In this document: positions 198-49,700 of the stretch, one piece after another
How the letters are laid out: the number at the start of each line of letters is the position of its first letter
Position numbering within the stretch: position 1 is the first letter of the stretch
Source: a virus
Taxonomy: Duplodnaviria > Caudoviricetes
Reading direction: 5' to 3' (one strand)
Length of the DNA stretch: 64,000 bases
Virus record (IMG/VR): IMGVR_UViG_3300046007_002820
Span: 325-64,324 of that record
The notes under the pieces: model-generated
What the model was told of the DNA's origin: nothing
Databases searched by the model: none
The model's input: the letters and a program-made list of their open reading frames with translations, nothing else
Translations under genes and position numbers: made by a program

Positions 198-2966
198 ATG
201 CCTGATACTTCTCTTCTAGATCAAGTCAAACAAATTCTTTACGGATCTGGAGCAAATCCTCCACTCATCGATCAAATCACGAAGATGATGTTCGGCTACG
301 ATTCTACAACTACGGCGACGGGTAAATCTCCGGACGAAGTCAATCTGAATCCGAAACTCGACGATATGATGGGATATACTGCCGAGCAAATCGAATTGAT
401 GGAAATCTTCGACAGTCGGCCGGATTATAAGCATGTTGGTACGCGTGAACTTCTATCCAGCACGCAACACAATTATCAGTTTAATCATGGTGAACATAGA
501 TACGGTGTAACGATTAGTCACCACGAGGCTACGCCTAATCATGCCGAAGTAACTTTTTATAAGCACACACAACGTGGCCCGACAATGGCGATGCAACATG
601 ACGACGACGGGCAGGCGCATAAGATTGTTGGTAAAGTCATACATATCGTTCGCGATCATGTCAAGAAACATAAACTGAAATCTATAGGATTTGGTAGCGA
701 TACGAGAGATAAAGGTCGCACAAAACTCTATAAAAGTCTAGCTAGAAAGCATGGTGGATCTTCTTGGTTTGGTGGATCGTCACATCGTATTCCAGTAAAC
801 GAATCCTACGAGATTCAACAACTCAACGAACTGTTCGACACTCCTGTGAAATATACTACGGGTGAACACCACCATCCAGAAAATGGGGATCATCATTATG
901 TATTTCATCATAAAAGTAAATCAGTTCATGTGAATATTGAACATTCCGAAGAGGACGAAGATACCGCGAAAGTAGAATTTTATAAAAAAACGCATTCTGG
1001 AAAGCATATATATTCTCAAACTGGCGATCATCCACAAGACGCTCACAAAATTCTGAGTGGTGTCCATCATATCGTAAAAGATCACGTTGCGAAATATCCA
1101 GAAATCAAACATATTAGATTTACTGGATCAGGACACTCCAGAGAAAAACTTTACGATAGAATTTCTCGAAAGCATAAAGGACGATCATCCAGAGATGTGT
1201 TAGATACAAACTACGAAATACCTGTTAATCAACATCACGAGCATGTAGCATTCACATTTGGACGATTCTCAGTTCCGTCAAAAGGTCATTCGAAACTCTT
1301 TGAGAAACTCAAGGAAGAAGCGGGAACTGGTCCTCACTACGTCTTCGCAAGTCATACGCAGGATTCTGAACGCAATCCGCTTTCGTGGAATACGAAGGTT
1401 TCCATCATGGAGCAATGCTGGCCAGATCTAAACATCTGTCAGGAGACGAATGTCAAGACGCTTTTCCAAGCTATCAGCCTACTAGAATCTGAAGGCTTCA
1501 AGAGCGCTACGCTCGTAGTTGGTCAAGACCGCTACGCAGAGTTCTCGAAGCTTCTAGAGACCTATCAAAAAGACTACTCGATGACTATTGGAATTGTCGC
1601 AGTTCCCAGAACGAGCGATGACGAATCGGCGACCAAAATGCGCGAAGCGGTCATCAACGAGGATTTCGAGACTTTCGCAGAAATGTTCCCAGAAGATACC
1701 GAGGAAGGTCTTGCTGAATTCGTCTACGATGTCGTCGGCGAGAATTTGAACGAACTGTTCGATAAACCTCACGAATATAAGAAAGACACTGAAAACAGCA
1801 CTGATTATAGACATATCTATAATTTTCACCATGGCGACGATCATTTCGAAACCAGCATTCATCATCATGCCGGGCCGAAAAAGGGAACAGCAACAGTAGT
1901 ATTCAATGATCAACACGGAGAGACTGGTGTGACTGGGAGACACAAAGGTTCTGCACATAAAGTCATCAGCACCGTTCATCACATTGTGAAAGACCATATT
2001 GCGAAACATCCTGAAATCAAACACGTTCGATTCACAGGCGACGGTGATCATGAGAAACTTTACAGTAAAATCACAAAGAAACGCGGGGGTGTTGAAGGTC
2101 CATATACTTGGGGTAAAGAATTCAAAATCCCAGTGAATGAATCGCTTGATGTTCAACAGCTCAACGAACTGTTCGACACTCCTGTGGAATACGAGACTGG
2201 CAACGAGCATAGAACCCAATATGGCGCGCATCATTACGTGTTTCACCATAAAGGTCGGCCTATTCATGTCAAAATAGATCATGGTAGTCTCAAAAAACCT
2301 ACACATGCATCCGTGAGGTTTCATGCAGTAGATGTTAATGGATGGTCGGAATACGAACAAACTCACGATCATCCAAAAGACGCTCACAAAATTCTGAGCG
2401 GAGTTCACCACATTGTGAAAGATCACATCAAAAATCATCCTACTGTGAAACACGTCACATTCTCTGGCGAAGGTGAATCTAGAACGAAACTCTACGATAG
2501 ATTAGCTCGTAAGAATAAAGGTAGATCTAAAAAGCATCCTATCTTCTCCGACGTTAAAAAGTATAGTGTTCCAGTAAACCGCAATTTGAAAGAAGAAGTT
2601 CTGGACATCATGAATGAATCTAAAATAATTCATGAACCGGGTAAGATGACTATTGGGCATGTTTCGGCAACTTTCCATCCAAAGTCTCGAGGTGGTGGAG
2701 GTGGATGGATCGTTAAAAATCATAGAACGCACGACTGGCACGGCGAGCTTTGGAACAAGAAAGACGCTCGTGATTCAATGGTAAAAATGTATCATGCTAC
2801 AAAAAACGACGATTTTATGGAATCTGCCAGGATTCCATCTCCGACTGGACAAAAGCCTGAAGATGAACGCCTCGGTCTAGACTCTAATCTAGGATCGAAG
2901 GACGATGTTCAACTGAGACGTCGGAAGACTATGAAAAGATTCAAGCAAATCATCGATGAAACCTGA
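198..2966 (+). CDS. His-rich repeat protein (putative internal head polyprotein) with a central nucleotidyltransferase-like domain
   Basis: Four ~130-aa repeats each starting L(N/M)E(L/I)FD; central FGRFSVPSKGH...GQDRY...SATKMR motifs resemble HIGH-superfamily cytidylyltransferase-like proteins of T4-like phages; late promoter upstream. Confidence 0.75.
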   Translation: MPDTSLLDQVKQILYGSGANPPLIDQITKMMFGYDSTTTATGKSPDEVNLNPKLDDMMGYTAEQIELMEIFDSRPDYKHVGTRELLSSTQHNYQFNHGEHRYGVTISHHEATPNHAEVTFYKHTQRGPTMAMQHDDDGQAHKIVGKVIHIVRDHVKKHKLKSIGFGSDTRDKGRTKLYKSLARKHGGSSWFGGSSHRIPVNESYEIQQLNELFDTPVKYTTGEHHHPENGDHHYVFHHKSKSVHVNIEHSEEDEDTAKVEFYKKTHSGKHIYSQTGDHPQDAHKILSGVHHIVKDHVAKYPEIKHIRFTGSGHSREKLYDRISRKHKGRSSRDVLDTNYEIPVNQHHEHVAFTFGRFSVPSKGHSKLFEKLKEEAGTGPHYVFASHTQDSERNPLSWNTKVSIMEQCWPDLNICQETNVKTLFQAISLLESEGFKSATLVVGQDRYAEFSKLLETYQKDYSMTIGIVAVPRTSDDESATKMREAVINEDFETFAEMFPEDTEEGLAEFVYDVVGENLNELFDKPHEYKKDTENSTDYRHIYNFHHGDDHFETSIHHHAGPKKGTATVVFNDQHGETGVTGRHKGSAHKVISTVHHIVKDHIAKHPEIKHVRFTGDGDHEKLYSKITKKRGGVEGPYTWGKEFKIPVNESLDVQQLNELFDTPVEYETGNEHRTQYGAHHYVFHHKGRPIHVKIDHGSLKKPTHASVRFHAVDVNGWSEYEQTHDHPKDAHKILSGVHHIVKDHIKNHPTVKHVTFSGEGESRTKLYDRLARKNKGRSKKHPIFSDVKKYSVPVNRNLKEEVLDIMNESKIIHEPGKMTIGHVSATFHPKSRGGGGGWIVKNHRTHDWHGELWNKKDARDSMVKMYHATKNDDFMESARIPSPTGQKPEDERLGLDSNLGSKDDVQLRRRKTMKRFKQIIDET

Positions 2967-6641: not shown

Positions 6642-6682
6642 ATGACTAAATATCCTTGAAATACTGCAAGGAATAATAAGAA

Positions 6683-19927: not shown

Positions 19928-21031
19928 ATGTCGTATTCAGTTTTTGATATTTCGGAGCGCAATACGTCGAAAGAACCAAGATTATTCTTAGGTCCTACGG
20001 CGACTATTGCGCGCTACGACAAGGTTCGGTATCCACAATTCCTGAAACTTGCGCGTAAACAAGAGGGATTCTTCTGGCAGCCAGAAGAGGTTTCACTCGA
20101 GAGGGATATCAAAGACTTCAAGAGTCTGACGAAAGAAGAAGAGCATATCTTCACGTCCAATCTGAAACGGCAAATTCTACTAGATTCGGTCCAAGGGCGA
20201 GCTTTATCTCTTGCCTTTGGACCGGTCACATCTGACCCTGAACTCGAAGGCTGGTGGAAAGTTCAGGAGTATTTCGAGCGTATTCATAATCGCACATACT
20301 CTTATCTGCTGCAGAACGTCTATCCAAATCCGTCGAAAGTGTTCGATGAGATGTTGGAAATTCAAGAAATCGTGGACTGCGCTAAGAGTGTTTCGAAAGA
20401 ATACGATAGACTTATTGATTATAATGCCACGACTAATCTGTCTATGTGGTCACCGTCTCGGGATTACAAATATGCTGTTAAAGAACAAATCTGGCGGACT
20501 ATTCACGCAGTTAATGCTTTAGAAGGTATTCGGTTCTATGTATCTTTCATCTGCTCCTGGGCATTTGCTGAACAGGGTAAAATGGAAGGTAATGCGAAAC
20601 TCATCAAGTTCATTGCTCGAGATGAAAACATCCATCTTGGAGTGACTCAGCAACTCATCAAGCTTCTTCCCAAAGATGATCCAGAATTTGAACGAATTCA
20701 GCGATTTGATGCTGAATACATTCAGCAATTGTTCACTGAAGTCGTGAACCAGGAAAAAGCATGGGCCAAATACCTATTCTCGACCGGTTCAATGCTTGGA
20801 CTCAACGAAGAAATCCTGTACGAGTATGTCGATTATATCGCAGCGAAACGTGCTCGCGCCGTGGGCATTCAAGGATTCAAGAATGTTCAAAATCCTCTAC
20901 CTTGGGATGCGAAATGGATCGCAGGCGCTGAAATTCAAGTAGCTCCTCAGGAAACTCAGATCAATTCCTATACTGTCGGGGATATCAAAAACGACGCATC
21001 ATCAGATTCATTCAAAGGATTTTCATTGTGA
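19928..21031 (+). CDS. nrdB: ribonucleotide reductase class Ia small subunit
   Basis: FFWQPEEV, QILLDSVQGR, ERIHNRTY, LEGIRFYVSF, IARDENIH, VAPQE. Confidence 0.97.
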   Translation: MSYSVFDISERNTSKEPRLFLGPTATIARYDKVRYPQFLKLARKQEGFFWQPEEVSLERDIKDFKSLTKEEEHIFTSNLKRQILLDSVQGRALSLAFGPVTSDPELEGWWKVQEYFERIHNRTYSYLLQNVYPNPSKVFDEMLEIQEIVDCAKSVSKEYDRLIDYNATTNLSMWSPSRDYKYAVKEQIWRTIHAVNALEGIRFYVSFICSWAFAEQGKMEGNAKLIKFIARDENIHLGVTQQLIKLLPKDDPEFERIQRFDAEYIQQLFTEVVNQEKAWAKYLFSTGSMLGLNEEILYEYVDYIAAKRARAVGIQGFKNVQNPLPWDAKWIAGAEIQVAPQETQINSYTVGDIKNDASSDSFKGFSL

Positions 21032-21725
21032 CAAGAGAAGGATGTTTATGTCTTTTATGGCTAGAAAGTCCACTTGGTCCTTTTACTTTTAAGTTGCATA
21101 CATCACAAATCATGTCAATTTGAGAATGATGTCTACCTTCTGACAGTAATTTACTATTACGTTCTTTAGCAAACAAAGAACCTTTTTCTCCAGAAAATTG
21201 ATGAACACCTCGTGCGACTCTATCTTGTTGAAATTTTGATCCGAGAAAATGATGAGTGCCATTTTCTACCATAGTCTTATTTCTTTTAATCGCATTCGCA
21301 GTACCGAGTACACCTGCAAAAGGATGGGTTCCTTCTAATATACGCTTTTTATTACTTTCCGAAGAACATTTTGACCGTTTTAATCTGAATTCTTGGGATT
21401 CCCAGCAGGTCGGCACTCTTCCGTCGTTGTTATGTTTATTGAGATAATCTTCTCGTGATCTAACGTCTAGTTTATTCAATACACGCGTTTCCCAAGAATA
21501 ACATGCTGTTTGATTCTCGCCAAATATTTTTCGAATTTGTATCACGTCTGGATCACCATTTTGTTCGATGTATTTGTTAACAATTTTAGATGAGGTGAAA
21601 TATGTAACCCACAAATCGTCGGGATGGCAATTCCGCGCCCATTTGCCACCATAATATTTCATGTTGGTTTTAAACCATTTCAATAGATATGTATAGCAAA
21701 TCCAAGGTCTGATATAAGTATTCAT
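21012..21725 (-). CDS. free-standing GIY-YIG-family (Seg-like) homing endonuclease
   Basis: YTYLLKW...YYGG...DLWVTYFTSS...E.RVL N-terminal domain; G(T/V/R)H(P/H/Q) repeats; C-terminal CDVC...H...H zinc finger; start ATG 21725 with AGGAGA SD; AT-rich. Confidence 0.75.
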   Translation of the reverse strand: MNTYIRPWICYTYLLKWFKTNMKYYGGKWARNCHPDDLWVTYFTSSKIVNKYIEQNGDPDVIQIRKIFGENQTACYSWETRVLNKLDVRSREDYLNKHNNDGRVPTCWESQEFRLKRSKCSSESNKKRILEGTHPFAGVLGTANAIKRNKTMVENGTHHFLGSKFQQDRVARGVHQFSGEKGSLFAKERNSKLLSEGRHHSQIDMICDVCNLKVKGPSGLSSHKRHKHPSLVTMKIL

Positions 21726-21802
21726 TGCTGGAGTTCTCCTGTTCAAGCAGTTGAGATCTAGTGGTAGTGGATGCGTCAACATCGCGACTACCAAGTATTT
21801 AG
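21726..21802 (-). promoter_or_regulatory. late promoter plus structured 5' leader of endonuclease gene (copy 1)
   Basis: Minus strand: CTAAATA-CTT-GGTAGT-CGC-GATG-TTGACG-CATC-C-ACTACC-ACTAG...AGGAGA-ACT-CCAGC-A-ATG; covaries with the copy at 39480-39541. Confidence 0.75.
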
Positions 21803-21807
21803 GAGAT

Positions 21808-22341
21808 ATGATGTTAACATTGAAAGAAACGAGATATAACGAATTATACATGGATATCGCTAATCGAGTATCCAAAATGTCTTATGCTAAAAGATTGCAT
21901 GTTGGAGCCTTGATTGTGAAAGATGGTAATATTATTTCCATGGGCTGGAACGGTCAACCAGCAGGATTTGATAATATATGCGAAGAATTGAATGCAGATG
22001 GCAGTTTAACTACACTGCCGACAGTTATGCACGCCGAATTTAATTCTATACGAAAAATAGCTAGAAGCACAGAATCCGCAGAAAATGCTACCATGTATTG
22101 CACTCACGCTGCATGTTTGCAATGTGCTCTTTTGATTTATGGCTCTGGAATCAGCACGTTCATATACGGTCAAGATTATCGAGATTCTTCAGGATTGGAT
22201 TTTCTTCGCCGAGCTGGTGTGACTGTTCTGAAACACAAAGAAGCATATACGCTAGCATCGGTTGATTGGCGAAATGCTTACAACGAACCAACTCGAATGC
22301 ATATGTTGGAGGATCATTTCTATGACAACAGCGAAGATTAG
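21808..22341 (+). CDS. cd: dCMP deaminase
   Basis: VGALIVKDGNIISMGWNG, HAEFN, CLQC; AGGAG SD before ATG 21808. Confidence 0.92.
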   Translation: MMLTLKETRYNELYMDIANRVSKMSYAKRLHVGALIVKDGNIISMGWNGQPAGFDNICEELNADGSLTTLPTVMHAEFNSIRKIARSTESAENATMYCTHAACLQCALLIYGSGISTFIYGQDYRDSSGLDFLRRAGVTVLKHKEAYTLASVDWRNAYNEPTRMHMLEDHFYDNSED

Positions 22342-38273: not shown

Positions 38274-38917
38274 GATTCATCGGCGACGTTCACGGTAAAT
38301 GGAACCGCTACGAAAAGCTCGCGAAAGAAGTCCCTGCTTCGATTCAGGTCGGAGATTTCGGGATGGGTTTCGGTCCGAAGCATCCTTTCACCTGGAAAGA
38401 TAACAAAGCTCCGTATCGCGATCATAAGTTCATTCGCGGAAATCATGATTCTCCGAGCCATTGTGCGCAGGTTGAATGGTGGATTCCCGACGGTACTGTG
38501 TGGCACGATTCCATGATGTTCGTTGGTGGAGCTCTTTCCATTGATGCTGCGCATCGTATTGAAGGTGTTTCCTGGTGGCGGGATGAGGAACTTTCGCTCG
38601 CTGCGATGGAGAAGATCATCACGAAATACGAGGCTGTGAAGCCTTCTATCATGGTGACTCACGAATGCCCGAATGTGATCGCGCGGGTTCTGTTTTCCTG
38701 GATGACTAAGCAAGAGTATCCATCCAGGACGCGGCAACTGTTTGATACGCTTTGGGAAATTCACAAACCACTGGTTCACGTATTTGGTCATTGGCATGAA
38801 GACAAAGATCAAATCATCGAAGGAACTAGGTTTATATGTTTGAATGAACTCAGTTATATAGATTTGGATCTAGATAATCCGGTTAATTCTGGAAAGATTG
38901 TGCCATATTACAATTAG
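38270..38917 (+). CDS. calcineurin-like metallophosphoesterase
   Basis: GDVHG, QVGDFG, FIRGNHD, VTHECP, FGHWH. Confidence 0.9.
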   Translation: MRFIGDVHGKWNRYEKLAKEVPASIQVGDFGMGFGPKHPFTWKDNKAPYRDHKFIRGNHDSPSHCAQVEWWIPDGTVWHDSMMFVGGALSIDAAHRIEGVSWWRDEELSLAAMEKIITKYEAVKPSIMVTHECPNVIARVLFSWMTKQEYPSRTRQLFDTLWEIHKPLVHVFGHWHEDKDQIIEGTRFICLNELSYIDLDLDNPVNSGKIVPYYN

Positions 38918-39479
38918 CAAAATGCCATCGTTTCATAGCTCTGTATTGCCCAATTTTGCCACATACGTCGCAAGCGGCTTTGTTGTTCGGATGATTGCCA
39001 TCCAAAATTCGTTTGGCATAAATTCTAGATGCATGAGTTTTACTGGCTTTCGATATCTTTTCTAAAGTTTCGTCAGAATGTTTTCTACCATAGAATGAAT
39101 TCAAGTTTCCGGTTCTTTTCTTCTGTCTTTCAGAAACAAGTTTTCTATTTTCATCACTCATTGGTTTAGAAGATAATCCTTCACGATTTATATAATCCCA
39201 ACCACCCCCGCCACCTAATTTTAGATTGTATGTATCTTTGTTAAGAACCCACTCTTCATCAACCCAAAATCGCTCTCGTTCATTGAGTTGTTCAACAGTT
39301 TCGCAATATTCTAAAATTTCTTTTGTAAAATTTTCTATGCCATATTTTTGAATAGCACGATTAATCAATTTACCTGAACCAAAATATTCGTCATCTAGAT
39401 TCTGCGTGGTATGTTTACCACGATATATTTTACCGTTTACATTATTGGTTATCTGATATATGATATGATAAATAGTCAT
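38883..39479 (-). CDS. free-standing GIY-YIG (Seg-like) homing endonuclease
   Basis: IIYQITNNVNGKIYRGKH...YFGSG...KYGIENFTKEIL...YNLKLGG.GG; NUMOD3-like FYGRKHSDETLEKIS; C-terminal CDVC...RWHFANC. Confidence 0.9.
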   Translation of the reverse strand: MTIYHIIYQITNNVNGKIYRGKHTTQNLDDEYFGSGKLINRAIQKYGIENFTKEILEYCETVEQLNERERFWVDEEWVLNKDTYNLKLGGGGGWDYINREGLSSKPMSDENRKLVSERQKKRTGNLNSFYGRKHSDETLEKISKASKTHASRIYAKRILDGNHPNNKAACDVCGKIGQYRAMKRWHFANCNMAQSFQN

Positions 39480-39541
39480 AGCTGGTCTCCTGTAAGGCTA
39501 GAGCTGATGGAGTTGGCGCTCGCGATCAGCATTATATTTAG
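39480..39541 (-). promoter_or_regulatory. late promoter plus structured 5' leader of endonuclease gene (copy 2)
   Basis: Minus strand: CTAAATA-TAAT-GCTGAT-CGC-GAG-CGCCAA-CTC-C-ATCAGC-TCTAG...AGGAGA-CCAGC-T-ATG. Confidence 0.75.
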
Positions 39542-39574
39542 TCGAGTATGGATATCCGGAAAGGAGAATATGAA

Positions 39575-39763
39575 ATGGCTGCCGATATCAACGCGTTCTT
39601 CACGGTTCTAGCATTCTCTTCTGGAGTGTGGACAATTTTGAGTACTTTTTGGATGTTGGGTGATACTACGGATGGACGCAAGCCTACAGCGACTTTCTGG
39701 TCAGCAGCGCTCGGATTCTGGATGACTGCTTTGTGCGCAAGTATCGCAGCAGCTGCATCATGA
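39575..39763 (+). CDS. small membrane protein
   Basis: AAGGAG SD; two hydrophobic segments. Confidence 0.55.
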   Translation: MAADINAFFTVLAFSSGVWTILSTFWMLGDTTDGRKPTATFWSAALGFWMTALCASIAAAAS

Positions 39764-43226: not shown

Positions 43227-43256
43227 TCATTTCCTTGGGTTTCCTCATATTTAGAC

Positions 43257-49624: not shown

Positions 49625-49700
49625 GTCCACATAGCTCAGGGGATAGAGCTGCGTTCTTCTAAAGCGCCGGTCGGGAGTTCGAATCTCTCTGTGGACGCCA
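49625..49700 (+). tRNA. tRNA-Arg (anticodon TCT)
   Basis: 76-nt cloverleaf: acceptor GTCCACA/TGTGGAC, D arm GCTC/GAGC, anticodon arm GCGTT-CTTCTAA-AGCGC, T loop TTCGAAT, encoded CCA. Confidence 0.95.

Follow-up and report, generated by a model that had tools for sequence, protein, structure and literature searches.

A late-promoter cassette at the head of unrelated phage homing-endonuclease genes and its predicted antisense RNA

Two nuclease genes of one phage, with little similarity between their proteins, begin with the same structured segment, which raises the question of what this segment is and on which DNA strand it acts. The genes, here called HEG1 and HEG2, lie on the minus strand of a 64,000-nucleotide stretch of IMG/VR virus record IMGVR_UViG_3300046007_002820 (positions 325 to 64,324; the whole stretch is referred to as the window), and each is antisense to both of its flanking genes. 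The phage was recovered from lake-water metagenome runs, and the large subunit of its ribonucleotide reductase shares ~ 55% identity with its counterpart in the T4-like Caulobacter phage Cr30. An earlier reading of the window (the sequence-only reading) had described a covarying element, RNA or DNA, that travels with the two nucleases. We report that the stable structure of this element is selected on the strand antisense to the nuclease mRNA and that the element is an independent module associated with nuclease genes. The cassette is widespread in aquatic T4-like phages, and in our judgement the chances are about even that it encodes a small antisense RNA over the start of unrelated homing-endonuclease genes.

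Structure of the element and the strand that carries it

On the minus strand, copy 1 (21802..21723) reads CTAAATA, CTT, the first arm of stem P1 (GGTAGT), CGC, the first arm of stem P2 (GATG), the loop TTGACG, the second arm of P2 (CATC), C, the second arm of P1 (ACTACC), A and CTAG, followed after a spacer by CAGGAGA, ACT, CCAGC, A and the ATG of HEG1. Copy 2 (39541..39477) has P1 arms GCTGAT and ATCAGC and P2 arms GAG and CTC, in the order CTAAATA, TAAT, P1, CGC, P2, the loop CGCCAA, P2, C, P1, T, CTAG, CCTTA, CAGGAGA, CCAGC, T and the ATG of HEG2. The common minus-strand layout that had been proposed matches both copies letter for letter at the places it specified. A pattern written for the common 5′ part matched the window twice, at these two copies, against 0.00 matches expected from 100 shuffles.

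Three pattern scans of viral contigs, filtered for stem complementarity, returned at least 94 distinct copies of the element, and the per-copy counts given for this viral-contig set (n = 94, or the 93, 90, 86, 85, or 84 that were usable) cover copies among the matches listed. The loci examined held 156 core-pattern matches, 127 with at least four of five tested P1 pairs complementary and 29 without. A stricter pattern was applied to metagenome contigs; it specified neither P1 nor the inner box described below and permitted a purine opposite a pyrimidine at the mid pair. This search gave 87 stretches, of which 73 were distinct and 45 of those new (the metagenome set). Sequence and spacing conservation, covariation, strand asymmetry, association with nuclease open-reading frames (ORFs), and multi-copy spread were computed directly.

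The segment forms two hairpins. SL2, which can be drawn on both strands, is built of P1, a mid pair, and P2 with its 6-nt loop; it spans 21763..21792 in copy 1, where the G-C mid pair is flanked by bulged bases (55.3 bits with covariance model R1), and 39503..39530 in copy 2, where the mid pair is again G-C (folds; 56.9 bits with R1). The CGC that had been taken for a plain bulge contributes its G to this mid pair, the partner being the lone C on the 3′ side, and the pair covaries (G-C 40, A-T 33, A.C 21; n = 94). CTAG and CCAGC, previously listed as unpaired invariants, are likewise partners in a stem, which closes a second covarying hairpin, SL1; the base of SL1 on the antisense strand is CUGG/CUAG with an invariant G.U (84/84). 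Three further SL1 pairs covary, being paired in 74, 74, and 62 of 86 copies compared to shuffle means of 45, 41, and 40 and maxima of 57, 55, and 55, and SL1 holds the anti-Shine-Dalgarno sequence. SL1 of copy 1 lies at 21728..21761 on the plus strand, with CUGG (21728-21731) paired to CUAG (21758-21761) through one G.U, as seen in the fold, the family pair counts, and RNAalifold, and its upper part carries the anti-Shine-Dalgarno CUCCU, complementing CAGGAGA at 21735-21741. SL1 of copy 2 (39482..39501, plus strand) folds as CUGGUCU/AGGCUAG, with the anti-Shine-Dalgarno sequence in the 5′ arm and loop.

The proposal of a covarying structured element held up in both alignments, each of which exceeded 500 of 500 shuffles. 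Among nine distinct copies, 99% of SL2 cells were paired compared to 72.9% in shuffles (0/500 reached it), and both sides changed in 8 of 11 pairs. For the antisense alignment of 85 sequences, 98.0% of 1432 cells were paired compared to 79.5% in shuffles (again 0/500), both sides changed in 11 of 18 pairs, and sliding the 3′ partners reduced pairing to 27–48%. RNAalifold independently predicted SL1 and SL2, and P1 was Watson–Crick in 268 of 270 cells of the metagenome set. The bases closing the SL2 loop are nearly always T..G (36) or C..A (45), a wobble-only covariation that looks alike on either strand, and are Watson–Crick in 2 of 94 copies, both T..A (for example 21779/21774). A YUNR U-turn motif in the antisense SL2 loops was considered and set aside, as a by-eye check fitted some loop types only.

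A pair that reads A.C on the sense strand becomes G.U when read on the other, so that wobble pairs report which strand is folded. The 1034 SL2 cells comprise 999 Watson–Crick pairs, 31 A.C or C.A on the sense strand, and no sense-strand G.T. At the mid pair, the copies in which the search pattern left both bases free have G-C 15, A-T 16, and A.C 13, with no other combination, while the metagenome set, read on the antisense strand, has G-C 29, A-U 11, G.U 5, and A.C 0. In SL1, the sense strand has an invariant A.C mismatch where the antisense strand has G.U, and inner pairs 1–3 hold 27 antisense-type wobbles compared to 4 of the sense type. The folding energies agree: the antisense strand is the more stable in 83 of 86 copies (mean -18.4 compared to -13.8 kcal/mol), and for SL1 alone in 84 of 86, the sense SL1 having a mean of -2.7 kcal/mol. 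The plus strand of copy 1 folds at -24.1 kcal/mol compared to -18.7 for the minus strand, and that of copy 2 at -19.3 compared to -11.2. The wobble pattern and the energies together place the selected, stable structure on the strand opposite the nuclease mRNA, and not on the nuclease-sense strand where it had first been drawn.

Nuclease genes behind the cassette

A covariance model of the whole element, R2 (72 positions, 18 base pairs), found exactly the two copies in the window, with nothing further at E up to 1, and found 8, 7, 3, 2, and 3 copies in five phage contigs of 134–283 kb. Behind each of these 23 matches lies an ORF of 126–284 aa on the opposite strand. When 61 downstream ORFs were compared to Pfam, the matches were NUMOD3 (25), HNH (6), HNH_3 (2), HNH_5 (1), GIY-YIG (4), SegE_GIY-YIG (3), and a TnsA-like domain (1), and many ORFs had no Pfam match. 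The cassette is absent from all 64 loci encoding relatives of HEG2. Because it heads several nuclease families and is missing from these 64 loci, the cassette is a module of its own, associated with nuclease genes, rather than a trait of one nuclease family. The idea that a structured element travels with nucleases as a unit was thus borne out, and the covariance-model search suggested for it did find further, nuclease-associated copies in phage contigs. By the same token, autoregulation by the encoded nuclease is unlikely as a general mechanism, since unrelated families (GIY-YIG, HNH, and others) share the element.

The element is not a known Rfam family: no family of Rfam 15 reached its gathering threshold at the element, and the best match in a permissive scan of 21650-21900 was at noise level, with an E of 0.42. 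Neither these scans nor the structure point to the riboswitch or ribozyme that had been entertained. The sole Rfam match at gathering threshold in the window is a tRNA gene (49625-49697, plus strand). The stricter pattern had no match in one genome each of 185,579 prokaryotic species, the core pattern had none in the cultured relatives S-PM2, S-SRM01, Melnitz, HTVC008M, and Cr30, and DNA searches of named phages with the window region and with the L128 nuclease locus gave no match.

HEG2 (38883..39479, minus strand; 198 aa) encodes a SegB/SegE-like GIY-YIG protein with NUMOD3, scoring 23.4 bits for GIY-YIG (cut-off 22.6), 27.5 for SegE_GIY-YIG (cut-off 25), and 27.6 for NUMOD3, and is ~ 46% identical to SegB/SegD-like genes by tblastn. 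It is flanked by a metallophosphatase gene and a small ORF (at 39575). HEG1 (21012..21725, minus strand; 237 aa) lies between nrdB (19928-21031, plus strand) and a dCMP deaminase gene (about 21808-22341, plus strand). It follows nrdB directly, the two 3′ ends overlapping by 20 nt. Its only Pfam match is a sub-threshold one to SegE_GIY-YIG (E 0.019; 15.7 bits against a cut-off of 25). That both genes are of the GIY-YIG type, as had been stated, therefore stands above the Pfam cut-offs for HEG2 and is provisional for HEG1, which is so called on this weak match and a motif judged by eye. The low similarity of the two proteins stands as described (BLASTP E 0.004 over 29 residues). Searching viral contigs at the protein level yielded no HEG1 relatives, and HEG1 homologues bearing the same cassette are present in loci L279, L285, and L288. 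Residues 74-217 of HEG1 are ~ 28% identical to I-TevIII-like endonucleases of T-even nrdB introns, which, with its position right after nrdB, suggests that HEG1 targets nrdB.

Several loci depart from the usual arrangement. In L183, L187, L191, L193, and L208, the cassette is followed by an ORF of just 11–44 aa, probably a decayed nuclease gene; four of the five retain an intact inner box, and L208 lacks CCAGC. At L090 (502-575), TATAATA replaces the late box ahead of a CAC/T mid-pair variant (A-T) and an HNH_3-type ORF, so that the cassette also occurs with an apparent sigma-70-type -10 box. Paired copies lie ~ 0.6–0.8 kb apart in L328 (2068-2141, plus strand, and 2705-2775, minus strand) and L173 (786-853 and 1596-1665), one pair in opposite orientation and the other in tandem. 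In L149 (2922-5016), L122 (3176-5740), and L110 (1423-4005), cassette nucleases stand between T4 core genes in the same orientation, the neighbours judged by eye being gp55-like and gp47-like genes, the small and large terminase genes, and a UvsX-like gene. Given these three loci, antisense placement of the nuclease gene is common and not obligatory.

Two facing late-type boxes and a predicted antisense RNA

The box of T4 late promoters, as described in PMC2988020, is 8 bp long and precedes the start by about one helical turn; 9 sites are given there with an A(-13) variant, and late transcripts are of either polarity. The late box of the window phage is (T)CTAAATA(T). CTAAATA occurs 12 times in the window, with an ATG within 50 nt downstream at 9 of the 10 sites outside the copies; all 10 have a purine at +1, and 5 have the T-G start signature. 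These sites lie at 167, 2991, 6646, 10064, 12047, 14905, 43988, and 45348 on the plus strand and at 43254 and 58567 on the minus strand, and the late leaders at 6646, 43988, and 45348 begin with small hairpins straight after the box. The outer box of the cassette occupies -13..-6 from the first hairpin base, with T at -1 in 89 of 93 copies and G at +1 in 83 of 93. Most family copies carry TATAAATA here, which occurs once in the window, where the window copies have CTAAATA (copy 1, 21796..21802, minus strand, with a spacer of 3 nt compared to the family's 5; copy 2, 39535..39541, minus strand, with a spacer of 4 nt).

Conservation extends beyond the ATG into codons 2–4. The bases after CCAGC are conserved regardless of protein family, and the ATG itself may stand before or after CCAGC, on which the copies were anchored. 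Codons 2–4 (x-Ile-Tyr, ATT TAT) are the complement of a backward-pointing box, ATAAATA, which is followed by N4, T, and GCTGG. Of 94 copies, 86 have this inner box, with at most one mismatch, at a distance of 4–7 nt from the G of the GCTGG that follows; in 69 the match is exact, and in 65 the spacer is exactly 5 nt. The predicted start mirrors that of the outer promoter, with T at -1 in 73 of 93 copies and G at +1 in 85 of 93, and the metagenome set, whose search pattern left the box free, has it in 40 of 44 copies. Codon choice follows the box: the third base of the conserved Ile codon is T in 72 copies, C in 5, and A in 15, and that of the Tyr codon T in 76 and C in 2, compared to ATT:ATC:ATA of 328:139:348 and TAT:TAC of 341:147 elsewhere in the same ORFs. 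This conservation suggests that the inner box is a second late-promoter-like box and a predicted promoter, and its position within the first codons favours a discrete antisense RNA over an mRNA leader. In copy 1, the candidate box is TATAAGTA, in HEG1 codons 2–5 (21713..21720, plus strand), followed by TTCATT and a G at 21727; it is a weak variant, with one mismatch to TATAAATA and two to the CTAAATA of the window phage, and its ATAAGTA form recurs in other copies (for example in L073, L122, and L147). In copy 2 the box is GATAAATA, in HEG2 codons 2–5 (39467..39474, plus strand), followed by GTCATA and a G at 39481.

In the reading that we prefer, the cassette would be a portable unit of ~ 100 bp in which two T4-type late promoters face each other across ~ 60 bp of structured sequence. 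From the outer promoter, transcription of the nuclease mRNA would begin at the first base of SL2 or within 1–2 nt of it. From the inner box, which lies in the complement of the Ile-Tyr codons, an antisense RNA would begin at the G that faces the final C of CCAGC, where SL1 has its base. Starting with this 5′ G, the antisense RNA would run through SL1, whose upper part carries the anti-Shine-Dalgarno CUCCU, and on into SL2 and a U-rich tail complementing the outer promoter, and would either end in that tail or read through. By position, the predicted RNA (median 74 nt, range 67–92 nt) is complementary to the whole 5′ untranslated region of the nuclease mRNA, including the ribosome-binding site, and in 60 of 86 copies U fills 5 or 6 of the 9 positions that follow the stem. 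In the window, it would span 21727..21803 (plus strand) with the tail AAGUAUUUAGG in copy 1 (R2 49.5 bits, E 3.8e-13, filters off) and 39481..39542 (plus strand) with the tail AUUAUAUUUAGU in copy 2 (R2 49.3 bits, E 4.6e-13). Nuclease expression could be held down by RNA–RNA pairing over the ribosome-binding site, with collision of the converging polymerases as an alternative or added form of repression; the firing of the inner box, the 3′ end of the RNA, and this function are what we infer.

A number of observations weigh against this reading. The window phage uses CTAAATA, yet its two inner boxes are of another form, and other occurrences of ATAAATA in the window are rare and not placed before genes. 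CTAAATA in the reading frame of the inner box would need a stop codon. In this phage, then, the inner promoter is perhaps weak or silent. No RNA runs containing the window stretch were listed. A simple terminator scan of the window and L149 called nothing at the hairpin and tail on either strand, and with a bulge in the stem and an A ahead of the U run, termination in the tail is no more than a prediction. Of 90 copies, 60 have a divergent upstream neighbour, which often starts within ~ 50 nt, so that an efficient terminator there would silence it; in copy 1 the Shine-Dalgarno sequence of the deaminase gene comes a few bases after SL2. Tail U content is no different for divergent and co-oriented upstream neighbours (5.10 and 5.13) and is therefore of no help in choosing between a terminated and a read-through RNA. 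Lastly, the search patterns behind most copies already specified some of the conserved letters, and the invariance of TC.CGA, TC.A, CTAG, and GCTGG is therefore in part ascertainment.

The closeness of the divergent neighbours also speaks for an alternative that we consider unlikely, namely that the element is an outward late promoter and leader for the neighbouring gene, so that the inner promoter and both hairpins would belong to a longer transcript reaching into that gene (in the window, the dCMP deaminase gene for copy 1 and the small ORF at 39575 for copy 2). The hairpins would stabilise or insulate the neighbour's mRNA, and the late expression thus restored or added would favour retention of the nuclease. 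The median gap to the upstream gene is 54 nt, with many gaps below 30 nt. In copy 1 the tail is weakly U-rich and is followed by the deaminase Shine-Dalgarno sequence and ATG (about 21805-21811). This Shine-Dalgarno sequence (plus strand, UAGGAGAU, window 21796-21812) overlaps the complement of the HEG1 late-promoter box, the divergent genes sharing bases. Embedded promoters for neighbouring genes are described for the T4 seg and mob genes, and are argued in that review to favour retention (PMC2988022). In 30 of 90 copies, however, the upstream gene is co-oriented, and the transcript would run antisense into it. The two-hairpin structure, moreover, stands before unrelated neighbours with no obvious leader role, and it begins exactly at the predicted 5′ end with a U-rich run behind it, which has the look of a discrete small RNA.

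It is more doubtful still that the main selected function lies on the nuclease mRNA, with SL2 acting as a 5′-terminal decay-protecting hairpin or as a site for a phage or host protein and the antisense features arising as by-products, although such a role could coexist with an antisense function. With the outer box at -13..-6 and G as the first base of P1, the late mRNA should start flush with SL2, the three other late leaders named above start with hairpins too, and the conserved bulges and loop-closing bases of SL2 suggest a recognition surface. The strand evidence runs the other way: SL2 has 31 sense-strand A.C mismatches and no sense-strand G.U, SL1 keeps an A.C mismatch on the sense strand throughout, and the sense fold is the weaker one in nearly every copy. 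A role on the mRNA also leaves the promoter-like box and the codon bias in codons 2–4 unexplained.

Least probable, and in our view improbable by a wide measure, is a DNA-level signal, either a PeSL-like recombination module or a single-stranded DNA hairpin used in homing or repair, with the inverted boxes as terminal repeats for swapping nuclease bodies: one cassette before unrelated families at 2–8 copies per contig offers ample exchange homology, G.T is also the best-tolerated mismatch in DNA hairpins, and PeSL cassettes are proposed in PMC4122927 and PMC2839356 to mediate shuffling in T4-type phages, but P1 varies between copies while its pairing is kept (which lessens the homology and indicates selection on structure), no recombinase accompanies the element, the late-promoter geometry of both boxes is not required, and no nuclease-less allele that would define its ends was seen among the contigs of four DNA runs matching part of the stretch, which are short same-phage pieces with no joints.

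Returning to the antisense-RNA reading, a stronger form of it can be put forward tentatively, and we would sooner doubt it than rely on it: a universal, self-contained 'nuclease socket' of ~ 100 bp in aquatic T4-like phages would make both the nuclease mRNA and a throttling antisense RNA of ~ 74 nt, and unrelated bodies (GIY-YIG, HNH, TnsA-like, and others) would repeatedly have been attached to one common set of four initial codons. The cassette, and not the nuclease, would then be the conserved unit of these mobile elements, and the RNA would be among the most widespread uncatalogued small RNAs encoded by phages.

Homing endonucleases need low, late expression to spare the host phage. If the antisense-RNA reading is true, the cassette would add a third, portable control, common to unrelated nuclease families, to the sequestering hairpins and autorepression of T4, and would carry the principle behind transposon RNA-OUT and type I antitoxins over to homing endonucleases. 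It would also explain why nucleases of different folds share a Met-x-Ile-Tyr start, these codons being a promoter on the other strand. R2 is usable as a specific marker that finds free-standing nuclease genes and degraded remnants in phage metagenomes, and the element is a defined candidate for a new Rfam RNA family. A methodological lesson is that a hairpin beside a gene need not act on that gene's strand.

Comparison with known systems

The T4 mobile-element review describes ribosome-binding-site-sequestering hairpins, autorepression, and promoters embedded in seg and mob genes (PMC2988022). In the I-TevI, segB, and Aeh1 mobE type, as presented there, the late promoter lies inside a hairpin whose 3′ arm sequesters the ribosome-binding site and which forms on early read-through RNA only, restricting expression to late infection (PMC2988022). 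The cassette resembles this type in that a phage homing-endonuclease ORF is closely preceded by a late promoter and an RNA hairpin. It differs in that its box lies 3–5 nt upstream of the first paired base, in the window copies and in the family, and in that the arms of SL2 lie upstream of CTAG and do not pair with the Shine-Dalgarno sequence, which instead falls in SL1, weak on the sense strand. The sequence-only reading had drawn the same distinction, and it was right to: the promoter lies outside the hairpin, and none of the 64 HEG2-relative loci, several of which show the classical type, carries the element. HEG2 relatives in L003, L005, L009, L012, and L018 carry the classical hairpin, enclosing the late promoter and pairing with the ribosome-binding site; it lies ~ 100 nt before position 2501 in the first four and before position 150 in L018. 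These SegB-like genes often adjoin tRNA genes, and the box in L003 is CTAAATA.

Other described elements share single features with the cassette. In PeSL cassettes, according to PMC4122927 and PMC2839356, an early sigma-70-type promoter and a terminator stem-loop share one strand beside ORFans. They are alike in being small, repeated promoter/stem-loop composites at mobile or variable genes, whereas the boxes of the present cassette are late-type and convergent and head nucleases, and a promoter and terminator scan called no sigma-70-like site at the element. For seg43(25) of Aeromonas phage 25, the review (PMC2988022) mentions a stable, non-sequestering hairpin right upstream of the ribosome-binding site, of unexplained function, which by its description resembles the cassette in adjoining that site without sequestering it. 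Dassa et al. 2009 (PMC2677866) found hairpins in 15 of 16 endonuclease 5′ untranslated regions at 'fractured gene' loci from ocean metagenomes, 10 of them with TATAAATA, and interpreted these as translational, sequestering the ribosome-binding site. Compared by the main text of that paper, in which 'antisense' and 'opposite strand' do not occur, these hairpins may be the same as SL2, which would perhaps already have been drawn there.

With an opposite-strand box in the 5′ part of its target and an RNA predicted to lie over the ribosome-binding site, the cassette may be likened by analogy to IS10 RNA-OUT and to type I antitoxins. In IS10/Tn10, an outward promoter inside the 5′ end of the transposase gene makes RNA-OUT, an antisense RNA of ~ 70 nt with a bulged stem-loop, whose sequence complements the transposase mRNA over its 5′ end and ribosome-binding site, and this promoter can read into adjacent genes. 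In contrast, both predicted promoters of the cassette are of the phage late type, its putative RNA would have two hairpins and overlap the whole 5′ untranslated region, and several homing-endonuclease families stand behind it. The Rfam family of RNA-OUT, like every Rfam family, was below threshold at the element. The nearest phage precedent is CfrI of the T4-like cyanophage S-PM2, a detected antisense RNA of ~ 225 nt that overlaps a free-standing homing-endonuclease gene and extends into psbA (PMC2984593, citing Millard et al. 2010). Unlike the cassette, CfrI has no conserved two-hairpin unit in that account, and S-PM2 has no core-pattern match. The literature searched held no account of an antisense RNA or a convergent late-promoter cassette common to homing-endonuclease genes. 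Judged by its sequence features, the cassette would belong to a known kind, the cis-antisense control of a mobile element's nuclease, in a convergent late-promoter, two-hairpin form.

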